Shown: piece by piece, positions 7,185 through 41,413 of the stretch
Layout: each line of letters begins with the position of its first letter
Position numbering within the stretch: the first letter of the stretch is position 1
Origin: Acidobacteriota bacterium
Lineage (GTDB): Bacteria; Acidobacteriota; UBA890; WLXD01
Direction of reading: 5' to 3'
Length of the DNA stretch: 64,000 nt
NCBI GenBank assembly: GCA_963666055.2
Contig: CAXWPH010000012.1
Location: 96,001 to 160,000 of the forward strand
Notes under the pieces: model-generated
The model's input: only the letters and a program-made list of their open reading frames with translations
Told to the model about the DNA's origin: nothing
Databases searched by the model: none
Position numbers and translations under genes: made by a program

Positions 7185-7219
7185 GCCTCTTTCGGGGGCG
7201 CTCTTTCTCTTCTTGTTTT
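7185..7219 (+). terminator. Possible intrinsic terminator after the SLT-LysM gene
   Basis: Short GC hairpin GCCTC-TTTCG-GGGGC followed by a pyrimidine/T-rich tract. Confidence 0.35.
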
Positions 7220-8716
7220 ATGATAAAGAACCTTATGGAAACTAAACAACTCGACCCTGCACGCCGCTGCGGCCGACCGTCCTGCAGGTGGCGTCTCACC
7301 CTCATGACCGCCGCTACCCTGGTGCTCACAGGCCCCCTGGTGGCCCAGGAAGCGCCGCCGACGTTCTTTGGCGGCATCCAGGTCAACGAACCCGACCACG
7401 ATCGCTGGATGGCAGCGCTCGCCGACGCCGGCCTCGACTCTGTCCAGGTCACCCTTTACGCCCGCCACCAGCGCTGGGACGAGGCGGCGCTCTACTGGGA
7501 TCGTGAGGCTCCCTGGGTGGTTTCCGAAATCCGCGCCGCGAAACGCGCCGGGTTGCGGGTCATGTTGGTGATGCGCATCGCCCTCGAGCACGGCCTCGCC
7601 GCCAATCGCCATCTGTGGCACGGGATGATCTGGCCACGCCAGGATCAGCTACAGGCTTGGTTTGATAGCTATTCCGAGTTCGCGCTCTGGGGAGCCGGCA
7701 TCGCCGCGCAAGAGGATGTCGACCTGTTCGTGATCGGCAACGAGCTCAGCTCGCTGACCTCTACGACGCTGCTCGAGGCCCTCCCCGAGCTTTACGCATA
7801 TTTTCTCGACCCGGTCAGCGTGGGGGCCGTCCGCGACGATCTTCTTCGCTGCGCGGCGCGTGCTGAAGCGGGCGGGCTGGCGCATCTCGACGGGGGGCGC
7901 GCTGACGATCTCGAGACCGTTCTCCGAAACGAGGAGCGCGTGCGCCGCGCCTGGACGCTACAGACGCTCGGAGGCTCCGGCGTGGGTCTGGAGCGTCTGA
8001 ACTCCCGCCGGGCGCGCTACGAGGCCTTCTGGCGCGATCTCGTGACGCAGGTGCGCCGGCGCTACAACGGCTTGGTGAGTTACGGCGCCAACTTCGATCA
8101 GTTCCAGGAGGTCGGATTCTGGGACGTTCTCGACTTCGTAGCGGTCAACGCTTACTTCCCGCTGAGCGTCTATGGCCTCGAGCCTGAGGCACGCGTCGAC
8201 CGTATGGCGAGCGCCTGGCGCCGTATCGCCGCCGAGCTGGCGCTGGTTGGCGACTCCCGCCCCGTGGTCTTGGTCGAGCTGGGGTGGACCCGGCGGCTCG
8301 GCAGTACCGTCCGCCCGTACTCCTATGACCGCCTCGAGGTGCTCGAAACAGCGGGTACAGACGACAGGCGGACCTGCGTCTATTGGGACTCGCAGCCCAA
8401 CGACGCTGGCGAGCGCGTGGCGGCGTTGCAGGCGCTCGCCGACGTGGTGCGCTCCGGTGGCTTCCAGACTTTGCGCGGCTTCACACTCTGGAAGCTGACC
8501 ACGCGCGTCGAGGATCGCGCCATCGAGCCCTTCGCGGCCTTCTTGCAACCGGGGTCCGGCTACCCGCACATCGGATGGCGGGACTTGACCACGAGCCAAC
8601 ACGACGAGCTCGACGCCGCCTATGTGGGGCTCGCCGCCGCCATCGCCGGCGAGGTGCGAGGCCGCTCGGGTGGCTGGCATAATGACAATATCAATCTCGA
8701 AAACGGGCAGGAGTGA
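7220..8716 (+). CDS. Secreted TIM-barrel glycoside hydrolase-like protein (GH113/clan GH-A-like); start may be 7235 or 7304
   Basis: IRAAKRAGLRVML, IGNE (acid/base), SYGANFD, FWDVLDFVAVNAYFPL, LVELG (nucleophile). Confidence 0.7.
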   Translation: MIKNLMETKQLDPARRCGRPSCRWRLTLMTAATLVLTGPLVAQEAPPTFFGGIQVNEPDHDRWMAALADAGLDSVQVTLYARHQRWDEAALYWDREAPWVVSEIRAAKRAGLRVMLVMRIALEHGLAANRHLWHGMIWPRQDQLQAWFDSYSEFALWGAGIAAQEDVDLFVIGNELSSLTSTTLLEALPELYAYFLDPVSVGAVRDDLLRCAARAEAGGLAHLDGGRADDLETVLRNEERVRRAWTLQTLGGSGVGLERLNSRRARYEAFWRDLVTQVRRRYNGLVSYGANFDQFQEVGFWDVLDFVAVNAYFPLSVYGLEPEARVDRMASAWRRIAAELALVGDSRPVVLVELGWTRRLGSTVRPYSYDRLEVLETAGTDDRRTCVYWDSQPNDAGERVAALQALADVVRSGGFQTLRGFTLWKLTTRVEDRAIEPFAAFLQPGSGYPHIGWRDLTTSQHDELDAAYVGLAAAIAGEVRGRSGGWHNDNINLENGQE

Positions 8717-36524: not shown

Positions 36525-37085
36525 TTGAGCGAGCCACGCGATCCAGCTTCGACACCGGCACCTGGCGCCGAGAGCGAGTCCGCAGAGGCCGGCCAGCACG
36601 CCGGCGGCGACCTATCCGACGAAGTAGATCGCGTCCTCTCATTGATTGCCATCGTGGAGAAACGGGTCCCCGAGGCCTATCGGGTCGAAATTGTCCGGGT
36701 TCTCCTCCCCCGCGCGATTGGAAAGTCGGAACGTGAGCTGGGGACGACGGTGCCCCCGCACGCTGAGGCCGGCACCTCGCGATTGCGGCTGGCACGGTAC
36801 GTGCCGGTTCTGGCGGCGTCTGGAAAGATGCTTCTAAAGGCGCTGGTCGCCCTCGAGGCCACGAGCTTGCAGCTGGGGATCGAATGGATGACCCCGAGCG
36901 AGATCGAGCGCTTCCTGGCGGAGCGTGGCCGCGTGCGGTCCGTCTACCGTACAAACGTGAGCAACGCGCTACGTGCGGCGCGAGATCTAGTCGACCGAAG
37001 GCGCCGTGGTCGCGCCTACGAGTACCGGATCACCGAACGCGGACGCGCTGCGCTTGACCGTGACCTCGCAATTGCCGGGTCCTAG
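36525..37085 (+). CDS. Hypothetical protein with a C-terminal winged-helix-like DNA-binding domain
   Basis: MTPSEIERFL...TNVSNAL...RRRGRAYEYRITERG helix-turn-helix plus wing pattern; GGAG upstream of the TTG. Confidence 0.65.
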   Translation: MSEPRDPASTPAPGAESESAEAGQHAGGDLSDEVDRVLSLIAIVEKRVPEAYRVEIVRVLLPRAIGKSERELGTTVPPHAEAGTSRLRLARYVPVLAASGKMLLKALVALEATSLQLGIEWMTPSEIERFLAERGRVRSVYRTNVSNALRAARDLVDRRRRGRAYEYRITERGRAALDRDLAIAGS

Positions 37086-37372: not shown

Positions 37373-37396
37373 CGAATGTCGGCGCGCCGACATTCG
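37373..37396. promoter_or_regulatory. Perfect 24-bp loopless palindrome CGAATGTCGGCGCGCCGACATTCG (candidate non-canonical parS)
   Basis: Exact self-complement, intergenic, about 130 bp downstream of the parB stop; 16-bp core TGTCGGCGCGCCGACA. Confidence 0.55.
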
Positions 37397-37528
37397 CTGA
37401 GATGTTACTTCAGGTTGAAGTCGTCCGGCCGAGGCAGCGTGTTGCACCGGGGCGATTCAGACCGACGCGGCCTCCGCGATCCGGGGCACCGCCGATTTGT
37501 ATCGCGCGACGAAGGAGAGCGCTCGTGC

Positions 37529-38392
37529 CTAACTTGCGGGGATGCCGTTGGATCTCAGGCTGCGGATCGCCTCGAGCAGGGAGCGCTCGACGTCGGCTAG
37601 CGAGACCTCGTCGTTTCCCAGGAACACGGTCACGGTCACTCCTCCCTTGGACCGGAAGGTGATCCGTCGAGGCGGCCGCCGTTTCGTAGTGCTGGCCGTC
37701 TCTTCGGCTGCCGCTGCTTTTTGTGCGGCCCGCCGCATCTTGCGAAGATCATCTCGCGTCAGGCCCTCGCTGATGACGCGCTGTGCGAGCGTTGCCATTT
37801 CCTCAACCGTGTCGCAACGGCAGATCTCGAGCAGCAGTGACTTACCACGGATCCTTGCCTCCTCCAGCTGCGCGCGAACCTCGCGTGGCATGGCCAGCAG
37901 GCTTAGAGACTCGGTGACGCTCGAACGCGACTTGCTGATCCGCTCCGCGACATCGTCGTGGGTGAATCCGAACTGGTCGATGAGCGCCTGCAGCGCTTCA
38001 GACTCCTCGAAAGCTGATAGATCCTGGCGCTGCAGGTTCTCGATCAGCGCGATTTCGAGCGCGCGCGCGTCATCAACATCGAGGACTATGCAGGGAACCT
38101 CCTCGAGCTGAGCAGCGCGGGCCGCCCGGTAGCGACGCTCGCCCGATACAATCTCGTAGCCACTTGCGGCTCGTCGGACCAGCAATGGCTCCAGTATGCC
38201 GACGCGCTGAATGGAGGCAACGAGTTCCTCGAGTCGCTCAAACGTTTGCCGCGGCTGGTTAGGGTTAGGCCGTATCAAGTCCAATGCCAGGAATTGCCCA
38301 ATCGCACGGGTATGCTCGGCCGCCAACTCCTCTACAAAATGAGCGTCATGCCGCATTCGTGTCTTGACCGGCAGCCCAAGTCGCTTAGACAC
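37529..38392 (-). CDS. parB: ParB/Spo0J family partition CTPase
   Basis: PNPNQPR, GILEPLLVR, SGERRYRAA, ENLQRQDL, HTH; GTG start overlapping the parA end. Confidence 0.92.
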   Translation of the reverse strand: MSKRLGLPVKTRMRHDAHFVEELAAEHTRAIGQFLALDLIRPNPNQPRQTFERLEELVASIQRVGILEPLLVRRAASGYEIVSGERRYRAARAAQLEEVPCIVLDVDDARALEIALIENLQRQDLSAFEESEALQALIDQFGFTHDDVAERISKSRSSVTESLSLLAMPREVRAQLEEARIRGKSLLLEICRCDTVEEMATLAQRVISEGLTRDDLRKMRRAAQKAAAAEETASTTKRRPPRRITFRSKGGVTVTVFLGNDEVSLADVERSLLEAIRSLRSNGIPAS

Positions 38393-39140
38393 GCGCCAAT
38401 ACCTCCTCTCCAAGCTTCGCGTATTGTTCCGCGCCCGTCGACGACGGCGCATGTGTGAAGATCGCTTCTTTGTATGCAGGGCTCTCTTCCAGCCTTACAT
38501 TTCGGCTGATCACCGTATCGAACACCTTGTCACCAAAGACGCGCCGCACCTGCTCGACAATATCACGTCCCAGAACCGTGCGGCGATCGAGCATCGTGAT
38601 CAACACTCCGAGCAGCTCCAATTTCGGGTTTACTCGCTGCCGGACGCGCTGCACCGTGTCGAGCAAGTCGTCTGTGCCTTCCATCGCCAGATACGACGAC
38701 TGTATGGGAATAAGCACGTGCGAAGACGCAACAAGCGCGTTAATCGTGAGCAATCCTAGTGTCGGAGGCGTATCAATGATCACGAAACGATAAGTATCGT
38801 TAATAGTAGCCAGTTGGTCGCGCAGTCGATAGTGACCATCAAACTCGCCCGATAGCTTGATCTCGAGCTTGGCCAGCGAAATTCGAGCCGGAGCCACGTC
38901 GAGATTTTCGAGCTGCGTCGAGCAGACGATTCGTTCGAGGCCGAGGCTTGTCTCCATCAGAGCGTCGTAAATCGTCAACTCGAACTCACTCGGGTCGACG
39001 TAGGAAATCGTGCTGTGTCCCTGCGGGTCCAAGTCGACGAGCAACGTGCGGTGCCCTTTTAGCGCCAGTGCCGCCGCCAGGTTCACCGCGGTCGTGGTCT
39101 TTCCCACGCCACCTTTCTGGTTCGCCACGGAGACGATCAT
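38385..39140 (-). CDS. parA: ParA/Soj family ATPase
   Basis: ANQKGGVGKTT, DLDPQG, IDTPP, RNVRLEESP. Confidence 0.95.
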   Translation of the reverse strand: MIVSVANQKGGVGKTTTAVNLAAALALKGHRTLLVDLDPQGHSTISYVDPSEFELTIYDALMETSLGLERIVCSTQLENLDVAPARISLAKLEIKLSGEFDGHYRLRDQLATINDTYRFVIIDTPPTLGLLTINALVASSHVLIPIQSSYLAMEGTDDLLDTVQRVRQRVNPKLELLGVLITMLDRRTVLGRDIVEQVRRVFGDKVFDTVISRNVRLEESPAYKEAIFTHAPSSTGAEQYAKLGEEVLARV

Positions 39141-39424: not shown

Positions 39425-39910
39425 CTACATCTCGTATTTTGAGAACTCGTCGGGGTCCAAGTTCTCAAACCAGCGTCGCAGCCTCTCCGAAGTCGACGGG
39501 TCTCGGTCGTCGTCGACGGAGCGCGCCTGATTGAGCACCGCCTCTTCGACGAAGATCGGCGCCTCGGTTCGAAGGGCCAATGCGAGCGCATCGCTCGGCC
39601 TCGAGTCGACCGTGATCTCGCTGTCTTCGATCTTCATGTGGATCTTTGCGAAATACGTGTTCTCGCGAAGCTCGGTGACTACGATCTTGTCGACTCGGGC
39701 ACCGAACGCTCCGACCATGTTGTATAGCAGGTCGTGCGTCATCGGCCTCGGCGTATCGATCGCCTCGACCTTCAAGGCGATGGCGTTGGCTTCGAAGATT
39801 CCCACCCAGATCGGCAGGACGTGGTTTTCCGACTCATCCTTGAGGATGACGATCGGCATATTCGTCACCGGGTCAACCATCAACCCTTTGACCTTCATCT
39901 CCACCTGCAT
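39425..39910 (-). CDS. Bifunctional nuclease family (DUF151) protein
   Basis: LPIWVGIFEA, RPMTHDL, DSRPSDALALALR. Confidence 0.92.
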   Translation of the reverse strand: MQVEMKVKGLMVDPVTNMPIVILKDESENHVLPIWVGIFEANAIALKVEAIDTPRPMTHDLLYNMVGAFGARVDKIVVTELRENTYFAKIHMKIEDSEITVDSRPSDALALALRTEAPIFVEEAVLNQARSVDDDRDPSTSERLRRWFENLDPDEFSKYEM

Positions 39911-39991
39911 GCGGCGCTCCTCGCTATGTAATACGACTATATCCGTGCGTCGGAGATCGGATCAAGCATGGCGCTGCACCTGACCGGATCG

Positions 39992-41413
39992 TCACTGTGG
40001 ATCGCTGACCACGCGGCCGTAGAGGCTGTGCGCCGCGTACGATGTGACCTTCACGTCGACCAGTCTACCGATTAGCCGGTGGCCGCCGGGCATGTTGACG
40101 ATGTGGTTCGAGGAGGTGCGGCCCGACACATCCTCAGTCGTACGCTTGCTGATGGAGTCGACTAGCACCTCCGTACGGCGGCCCAGCCACGACGCGTTGT
40201 GCTGCTGTTGAATCTCGCGGCCGACGTCTTGGAGCTCCAGGAGGCGGTCGCGCTTGACCCTCGCGGACACGTCGTCCTTATAGTTGAGCGCCGCCGTGTC
40301 GGGACGCTGCGAGTATTCGAACGAGTAAAAAGAGTCGTACTCGACCTCGCGTACGAGACCGAGGGTGGCCTCGAAGTCGGCGTCGGTCTCGCCCGGGAAT
40401 CCGACGATGATATCGGTCGACAGCCCGACCTCCGGTATCCGACGGCGGAGCTCTTCGATCTGCCCGCGATACGAATCGACCGTGTAGTGGCGGTTCATCT
40501 GATGGAGGATGCGGTCGGAACCTGATTGCACCGGCAGGTGGATATGGTCGGCCACGGTCGGGCACTCGGCCATCGCCTCGATGAGGCGCGGCGACAAGTC
40601 CTTGGGGTGTGACGTCAGAAAACGAACGCGCTCGACGCGCGGCTCCGCGCTCGGAGTCGACCGCAGCATGTCGTCGATCGCTGCGAGGAGGCCGGGGAAG
40701 TCCATCCCGGTTTCGGGGTCGACCCACGAATTGACGTTCTGCCCCAGCAGAGTCGCCTCACGATAGCCGCGCAATCCAAGGCCGCGAATCTCGTTCACGA
40801 TCGCGTGCGCCGGCCGATAGATCTCCAAGCCGCGGGTGCTCGGAACGATGCAGAAGGAGCAATAGTTGTTGCATCCCTCCATGATGGTCACGAAGGCGCG
40901 AACGCGGTCTGCTCGGTGGACTTCTGGAGTTTCGAACTGAACCTTGTCCTCGGTATTGACCTGCGGGCCGAGGCCAGCCTGTACCCGGCCCAGAACACTC
41001 TCCAGGCTATGTATAGCCCGTGTGCCGATGACGAAGTCGACGCTGGGTTGGCGATCGATGATCTCCTCGCCACGCTGCTGCGCGATGCAACCAGTAACAC
41101 CGACCAGCAACTCGCGCGGCTGGCCGCCTCGGCCGCCCTCGCGCGACAACACATCCTTGATCTGACGCAGCCTGCCGAGCTGCGAGAAGAGCTTGTCTTC
41201 CGCACGTTCGCGCACCGAGCAGGTGTTTACCAGCACGAGATCGGCATCGGATGCCTGCTCGGCGGCTTCGTACCCCATGCCGTCGAGAAGGCCTGCGTAG
41301 ATCTCCGAATCGTGCACGTTCATCTGACAGCCGAACGTCTTGATCCAATAACGCGGCTTGCGTAACGGGCTCACATTCGTCTCAGACGTACGCAGGCTGT
41401 CGAGATCGGTCAT
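39992..41413 (-). CDS. miaB: tRNA methylthiotransferase MiaB
   Basis: TFGCQMN, NTCSVRE, GCIAQ, CNNYCSFC radical-SAM motif, C-terminal TRAM domain. Confidence 0.95.
   Translation of the reverse strand: MTDLDSLRTSETNVSPLRKPRYWIKTFGCQMNVHDSEIYAGLLDGMGYEAAEQASDADLVLVNTCSVRERAEDKLFSQLGRLRQIKDVLSREGGRGGQPRELLVGVTGCIAQQRGEEIIDRQPSVDFVIGTRAIHSLESVLGRVQAGLGPQVNTEDKVQFETPEVHRADRVRAFVTIMEGCNNYCSFCIVPSTRGLEIYRPAHAIVNEIRGLGLRGYREATLLGQNVNSWVDPETGMDFPGLLAAIDDMLRSTPSAEPRVERVRFLTSHPKDLSPRLIEAMAECPTVADHIHLPVQSGSDRILHQMNRHYTVDSYRGQIEELRRRIPEVGLSTDIIVGFPGETDADFEATLGLVREVEYDSFYSFEYSQRPDTAALNYKDDVSARVKRDRLLELQDVGREIQQQHNASWLGRRTEVLVDSISKRTTEDVSGRTSSNHIVNMPGGHRLIGRLVDVKVTSYAAHSLYGRVVSDPQ

Follow-up and report, generated by a model that had tools for sequence, protein, structure and literature searches.

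Sequence comparisons across the phylum Acidobacteriota identify a genuine, phylum-wide variant of the ParABS partition system that is linked to the replication terminus and has a new predicted DNA site. The 64,000-nucleotide stretch of an Acidobacteriota genome that we analyzed (the window) carries what these comparisons support as a complete second ParABS-type set – an ATPase (ParA2), a DNA-binding partner (ParB2), and a 16-bp palindrome (parS2). An earlier note on this DNA had proposed a second, lineage-specific ParABS or Noc-like system that recognizes a new site.

ParABS is described as an origin machine, with parS placed near the origin, in the part of PMC7333895 covered here. The part covered of PMC5098823, which concerns the origin system, gives P. 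aeruginosa parS as functional only within about 650 kb of oriC. We found no report of a ParABS with a terminus role, or of the parS2 sequence, in the literature searched, in which subscription papers are thinly covered; nor is the system described in the parts covered of PMC13342612 and bioRxiv 10.64898/2026.09.14.751567.

The parA2–parB2 operon and its products

parA2 (38385..39140, minus strand) encodes a Soj-type Walker-A ATPase of 251 amino acids, and its end overlaps the start of parB2 (37529..38392, minus strand; 287 amino acids) by eight bases. The parA2 start, an ATG at 39140, is provisional and leaves room for a start further upstream. For parB2, orthologue comparison places the start 12 codons upstream of the one chosen in the earlier note, at a GTG at 38392 that overlaps the parA2 stop and has a strong ribosome site (GGAGAGGAGG) ahead of it; the protein read from this codon begins MSKRLGLPVKTRMRHD and has the N-terminus MSKRLGLPVKTRMRHDAHFVEEL. 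Domain matches identify both gene calls as genuine (AAA_31 for ParA; ParB_N and HTH_ParB for ParB), and the GERRYRA, RGKSLLLEI, and MRHDAHFVEEL stretches picked out earlier are all present in the ParB protein. Two RNA runs cover the region with short, shallow contigs only – a 199-base piece in parB2 and a 257-base piece over the parA2 start. A DNA run covers the stretch as a single identical piece and may be the origin of this sequence.

A 186-amino-acid gene without Pfam or NCBIfam matches (36525–37085, plus strand) converges on parB2; among the loci compared, only those from the same order as the window have it beside parB2. Ahead of parA2, on the same strand, lie two genes (39425–41413, minus strand), of which one encodes a bifunctional nuclease (DUF151) and the other a probable MiaB-like radical-SAM protein. 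In one related locus (L021, on contig C20 of genome G003), parB2 is split over two frames with its site intact, which reflects either a frameshift or a sequencing error.

ParA2 has the intact motifs of a Walker-A ParA/Soj ATPase: KGGVGKT, DxDPQ, R187, and R216 are invariant in 40 ParA2 proteins, and matches to Soj-type structures have E values of 1e-59 and 8e-57. Two of its arginines align with the DNA-binding arginines of Soj. The gene is directly upstream of parB2 in 76/76 named loci, and ParA identity runs from 54 to 100% over many classes.

ParB2 has the parts by which a ParB is recognized – a CTP-binding N-domain (ParB_N), an HTH, and a C-terminal domain, here of strands plus a helix. These are preceded by an N-terminal RxGLP..MRHDxHFVEEL peptide, where canonical ParB has LGRGL. 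QPR, GERR, and ENxQR are invariant in 24 ParB2 proteins, and the predicted model (pLDDT 84), in which a helix at residues 19–26 falls in a low-confidence stretch, matches ParB, Spo0J, and Noc structures. Six genomes encode a ParB2 that lacks the peptide (G032, G082, G101, G164, G047, and G060), and none of the six has a neighboring parA2. Because peptide and parA2 are lost together, the comparison suggests that the RxGLP..MRHD peptide is the contact with ParA2.

Within the HTH, the specificity residues are changed (E161, K184, and L187). In the numbering of Jalal et al. (PMC7383237, in the part covered), R173 is kept (R156 in ParB2) and N178 is replaced by an invariant E161, while G201 and R204 become K184 and L187 by ungapped count and by Spo0J alignment, an M. 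xanthus alignment putting the counterparts of these last two one gap off. The same part of that paper gives G201 as conserved in all parS-binding orthologues. Of the two residues that read canonical parS (TGTTYCACGTGRAACA), R173 and G201, ParB2 keeps only the arginine, and, judged from these residues, its binding to canonical parS is unlikely because K184 stands in the place of G201.

The parS2 palindrome and its distribution

parS2 (37377..37392), the predicted loading site of ParB2, is a 16-bp core, TGTCGGCGCGCCGACA, within the 24-bp perfect palindrome CGAATGTCGGCGCGCCGACATTCG (37373–37396), 132 bases past the parB2 stop (37529). The earlier note had singled out this palindrome, and we agree with its description of a core that has the length and the TGT..ACA ends of canonical parS and a different interior. 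It had also noticed no canonical parS in the window, and we found none on the window's whole contig (C12). The 24-bp length was discarded as a signal: the flanks vary among loci, and the length is no argument for function because the genome contains 15 perfect palindromes of at least 24 bp. Only the 16-bp core is conserved, with a family consensus of TGTCGGC-NN-GCCGACA; among 71 distinct sites, the arms do not change, whereas the central dinucleotide does (GC 39, CA 11, CG 10, AG 6, AC 5). A second short element, [TC]ACTTYARGTT, lies at 37406–37416 (plus strand), 12–13 bases from the palindrome end, and was read by eye in most loci of the window's family (L001–L004, L006, L007, and L009).

The core recurs beside orthologous parB genes, where the earlier note had suggested looking for it: with at most two mismatches, it is present in 26 of 30 ParB2 loci from near and far relatives. 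Fourteen fixed bases are expected by chance about 1.4e-4 times per 4-kb locus and 0.2 times per genome, and the conservation of the core beside orthologous parB genes is beyond chance. Among 151 sampled genomes with a completeness of at least 95%, a profile built from 24 ParB2 proteins defined 86 ParB2-positive genomes (E below 1e-70), the other 65 having weaker canonical-type matches or none. The exact pattern is found in 67/86 ParB2-positive and 1/65 ParB2-negative genomes, and a reversed-pattern control in 1/151; these tallies take in one unpublished genome (G045), related genomes are non-independent samples, and some loci of our locus set may duplicate sampled genomes. In these comparative data the site tracks ParB2 phylum-wide, which upholds the proposal of a new DNA site for the second ParABS-type system. 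The description of the system as lineage-specific did not hold, since ParAB2 is phylum-wide in Acidobacteriota rather than narrow. By their record titles, related ParB2 loci come from several classes of the phylum; ParB2 is absent from 65 of the 151 genomes sampled (about 43%).

The position of the site varies. It can follow parB2, as it does in the window's order, precede parA2, or fall within the parB2 coding sequence, in which case it translates as C-R-x-A-D-I. This peptide is encoded by 35 genes, a few of which are close kin, and in 31 of them the codon choice reproduces the site exactly, where the codon usage of these genes would predict about 1.6%. For three of the other four, there is an intergenic copy upstream of parA2. 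The site inside parB2 is kept by selection at the DNA level. In two loci (L353 and L354, from G047 and G060), the site extends over the start codon of a parB2 that has dif next to it and lacks both the peptide and a neighboring parA2.

The earlier note had named clustering near the locus as a further point of support, and relatives bear this out: one genome (G111) has seven sites within 875–1005 kb of its 6.49-Mb chromosome and another (G150) has five within 1260–1341 kb of its 2.66-Mb chromosome, in both cases around parB2. In the 5.73-Mb genome of the window (G000), the exact 16-bp core occurs once, and this occurrence is the one in the window. It is the only strong site in that genome, which has no genome-wide array (next-best profile score 20 vs 32). 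On these comparisons, parS2 is very probably read by ParB2.

Some ParB2 genomes lack the site. The exact pattern is absent from 19 of the 86, and when five of these 19 were searched at one mismatch, two gave no match and three gave one match each, on a contig other than that of parB2. Of 102 loci, 49 have no 14-bp core in the DNA retrieved (1.5 to 10 kb on either side), and a search of these 49 for a substitute palindrome returned nothing convincing. Distant sites were found for some core-less loci, at 5 kb in one genome (G040) and at 45–52 kb in family f32, and in another genome (G038) three copies are on a contig other than that of parB2. In family f29 (L144–L150), parAB2 is mostly beside dif, and the parS2 and canonical parS patterns are each found in 1/9 genomes; both sites may have changed in this family. 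A core match in a viral locus (L306) was rejected as chance, as it sits inside an unrelated long ParB.

Position at the terminus and coexistence with a canonical system

ParAB2 is located at the replication terminus, a placement that we regard as virtually certain. The distance of parB2 from dnaA is 0.47–0.55 of the chromosome in 8/8 near-complete genomes, the chromosome total of one of them (G007) being the sum of two contigs. An exception is found in G101, whose parB2, lacking both the peptide and parA2, is 63 kb away from dnaA.

A 28-mer resembling dif was first met 38 bases behind parB2 in one locus (L022) and recurs in many loci. Matches to the dif pattern are present in 59 of the 86 ParB2 genomes, in 55 of them on the parB2 contig; the match is within 2.5 kb of parB2 in 49 of the 59 and within 500 bp in 40. 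In the DNA fetched for 75 named loci, 23 have a dif score of at least 20 and 17 of these have it within 1.5 kb, with a profile whose training set was drawn partly from the same 75 loci.

The predicted XerCD dif of the window's chromosome is an intergenic TTTTATGATAA AGAACC TTATGGAAACT at 7216..7243 (plus strand; C12:103,216), 30 kb from parS2. It has the genome's best dif score and the features of a XerCD dif – two 11-bp arms, a 6-bp spacer, a skew switch (the maximum of the cumulative GC skew on C12, at 102.5 kb, falls at about 6500 in the window), and conservation in kin, with the TTATGGAAACT arm also present 32–39 kb from parB2 in three genomes (G002, G007, and G011). The score is low (13.7, against at least 34.9 for training sites), and the runner-up, at another skew switch on contig C2, scores 13.0. 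KOPS counts on C12 were too few to give a polarity, and we found no match to MatP in the genome. On C2, a stretch of inverted GC skew at about 300–380 kb starts at a half dif-like site with a good XerC-type arm (C2:302,587), and this stretch is possibly an element integrated by Xer recombination.

A canonical parABS lies separately beside dnaA in the same genome, so the locus in the window is indeed a second system, as proposed. The canonical parAB is on contig C15, with two canonical parS directly upstream and dnaA 5 kb off, and its ParB has LGRGL, ANYLRLL, and MGHARAL. ParAB2 does not have the location near oriC and dnaA of an origin system. Nor does it belong to a separate replicon, as the ParABS of plasmids and chromids do: it is on the same contig as dnaA in the eight near-complete genomes. 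In the 15-contig assembly of the window's genome, ParAB2 and dnaA are on different contigs.

ParAB2 resembles chromosomal ParABS (Soj/Spo0J–parS; the structures compared were T. thermophilus 1wcv/1vz0, M. xanthus 7bnk, and C. crescentus 6t1f) in its parA–parB operon, Soj-type ATPase, CTP-binding ParB fold, 16-bp palindrome with TGT..ACA ends, and small site clusters near the genes. Unlike those systems, it lies at the terminus beside dif rather than near oriC, coexists with a canonical system, uses a different site, and has E, K, and L in place of N178, G201, and R204.

Origin, proposed function, and rival readings

Like type Ia ParABS, ParAB2 has a palindromic cis site linked to its cognate parB, and the closest named relatives of ParB2 are plasmid and chromid ParBs of this type, from Nitrosococcus (NC_007483.1, NC_014316.1, and NC_013958.1), Azospirillum, and Skermanella replicons. 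In a quick, unrooted tree of 76 rows, the ParB2 sequences group on a single branch (SH-aLRT 99), separate from that of canonical ParB (96). ParB2 and its plasmid and chromid kin have in common an S-[KR]-S-x-L-x-E stretch after the HTH and 16-bp palindromes in or beside parB. They differ in that identity is only 34% and that the kin work for separate replicons, ParAB2 being part of the main chromosome that carries dnaA.

More distant ParBs are likewise basic at the position of G201, and their counterpart of the ParB2 stretch C-R-x-A-D is C-R-T-S-D. The C-R-T-S-D relatives were predicted to have TCGGA-NN-TCCGA, and the prediction was borne out, as Nitrosococcus plasmid parB genes carry this pattern twice each. 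In the three Nitrosococcus plasmids, AGTCGGACGTCCGACT, whose main difference from parS2 is a single base in each arm, is inside parB at the same place as the in-gene parS2 and again just downstream; the in-gene place, −329 to −332 from the stop, is also that of the A. thermophilum palindrome. Azospirillum and Skermanella replicons have other 16-bp palindromes in or beside parB, and no such site was found on one Planctomycete plasmid and one Myxococcus plasmid. The predicted parS sites of the Nitrosococcus, Azospirillum, and Skermanella replicons are AGTCGGACGTCCGACT, TATGCGACGTCGCATA, TGTGGGACGTCCCACA, and TATTCGACGTCGAATA, from loci L184 (NC_007483.1), L346, L347, L348, L349, and L350. parS sites of Azospirillum replicons are predicted in the part covered of bioRxiv 10.64898/2026.09.14.751567.

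The sister palindromes of the plasmid and chromid kin, together with the separate branch formed by ParB2, make a plasmid-type origin likely. On this sequence evidence, a plasmid or chromid is the likely source of the cassette, which would have become fixed early in the phylum's history. Among the matches listed there is no close plasmid or phage copy of ParB2, the best plasmid match being below 45% identity, and the ParB2 N-terminus was found in 0/80 phage loci.

From its gene content and position, we think that ParAB2–parS2 is probably a terminus centromere, with active positioning or segregation of the terminus as its main job. Points against this reading are the ParB2 genomes without the site, the ParA-less lineages, the share of the sampled phylum that has no ParB2, the single strong site and the low dif score in the window's genome, and the P. 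aeruginosa limit on parS distance from oriC. ParB2 clamps might instead be a landmark or scaffold of the terminus rather than a cargo – aiding FtsK–XerCD at dif, tying the terminus to the divisome as MatP does, or controlling SMC loading or unloading, with ParA2 accessory. We consider this rather unlikely, given that an intact ParA2 is in the operon at most loci (76/76 named) and that its catalytic residues are invariant, although several observations lean towards it. dif is often within 500 bp of parB2 (40/55), and parB2 is still beside dif where the site was not found (seven loci of family f29) and where parA2 and the peptide have been lost (G047, G060, and G164); further, XerD drives SMC unloading at dif in B. 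subtilis (cited in the part covered of PMC13342612). Since G047 and G060 keep parB2, site, and dif together without parA2, part of ParB2's job may need no motor. By analogy of role only, ParB2 would resemble MatP–matS of enterobacteria and Vibrio as a sequence-specific organizer of the terminus region; it differs in being an unrelated protein that is predicted to form a CTP clamp and has an ATPase as its partner. ZapT of Caulobacter is a further sequence-specific terminus organizer. It is improbable that the terminus complex places or times division, with ParA2 acting on FtsZ like MipZ or PomZ and ParB2–parS2 as a mid-cell cue. Most bacteria have their terminus at mid-cell when they divide (PMC4177673, in the part covered) and ParA2 has a weak match to the MipZ profile (E 1.8e-11), but ParA2 is far closer to the Soj-type structures (1e-59 and 8e-57) and no PomX/PomY-like neighbor was seen among the window's open reading frames.

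The plasmid and chromid affinities of ParB2, a dif adjacency that fits Xer-mediated integration, and sites that often precede parA2 or cover the start codon of parB2 would also suit the remnant of a plasmid integrated at dif, whose palindrome is now only an operator through which ParB2 represses its own operon. Such a history may explain the origin of the locus but not its upkeep, and we rate it very improbable as an account of present function: the genes are kept over many classes (ParA identity 54–100%) with intact active sites, ParB2 has no close match among the plasmid matches listed and none to its N-terminus in the phage loci, the site is downstream of the operon in the window's order, and extra sites extend over 80–130 kb around the terminus. 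The Noc-like option of the earlier note, in which ParB2 would use its N-terminal peptide to tether DNA to the membrane and would block division over unsegregated DNA, is one we do not favor and give only a slim chance. The top NCBIfam score of ParB2 is indeed to the Noc model, at 165 of 315 bits and far under the cut-off, and, like Noc, ParB2 is basic at the position of G201. Noc has numerous sites, which stay clear of the terminus, whereas those of ParB2 number one to seven and lie only there. ParB2 also has its own ParA, its peptide is lost together with parA2, and of the Noc set Q173/K179/K184/R201 it lacks the first three, with R-S/T-x-K where Noc has Q-K-K-R. The likeness to Noc–NBS of Bacillota is that of a ParB paralogue with switched DNA specificity in cells that keep the canonical ParB (PMC7383237, in the part covered). 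Finally, we looked at the two possibilities that the earlier note had named as refuting it – that the palindrome is an RNA hairpin (terminator) or an operator of the convergent winged-helix gene (36525–37085) – and strongly disfavor both, with hardly any probability left to them. The site is between two convergent genes here and can fold, with an unremarkable z of −1.77; against this, no terminator was called at the site, the arms show no compensatory change and only the center varies, the site is also found ahead of parA2 and as part of the parB2 reading frame, and the neighboring gene is confined to loci of the window's order while the site is far wider.

Returning to the terminus centromere, we lean towards a fuller picture in which many Acidobacteriota would have two orthogonal centromeres per circular chromosome. 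The canonical ParABS would move the origin, and the plasmid-derived ParAB2–parS2 at dif would position and then split the terminus, coupled to dimer resolution and division and replacing MatP-type organizers. From what is known of the protein family, a rewritten helix (E161 and K184 for N178 and G201) would let ParB2 dimers recognize TGTCGGC-NN-GCCGACA. The dimers would bind CTP, close to sliding clamps, and spread from parS2 over the dif region, and their N-terminal peptide would stimulate ParA2 on the nucleoid to hydrolyze ATP. One ParB2 focus would be centered at mid-nucleoid, like a low-copy plasmid, bringing dif to the septum for FtsK–XerCD; after replication and dimer resolution, ParA2 would separate two ParB2 foci. 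The distinct site and peptide would prevent interference with the origin system.

Terminus handling in bacteria without MatP is an open question. If our reading is true, a native, widespread ParABS at dif would give one chromosome two non-interfering centromeres and would offer a direct route to testing active terminus positioning. parS2 would be a third natural DNA specificity in the chromosomal ParB/Noc series and, with ParB2, a new pair for labeling loci. Sister plasmid pairs are at hand for comparing residues with bases, the predicted parS of Nitrosococcus, Azospirillum, and Skermanella forming a natural series for ParB specificity. More broadly, the analysis suggests that an abundant phylum has domesticated a plasmid partition cassette to serve at the core of its cell cycle.
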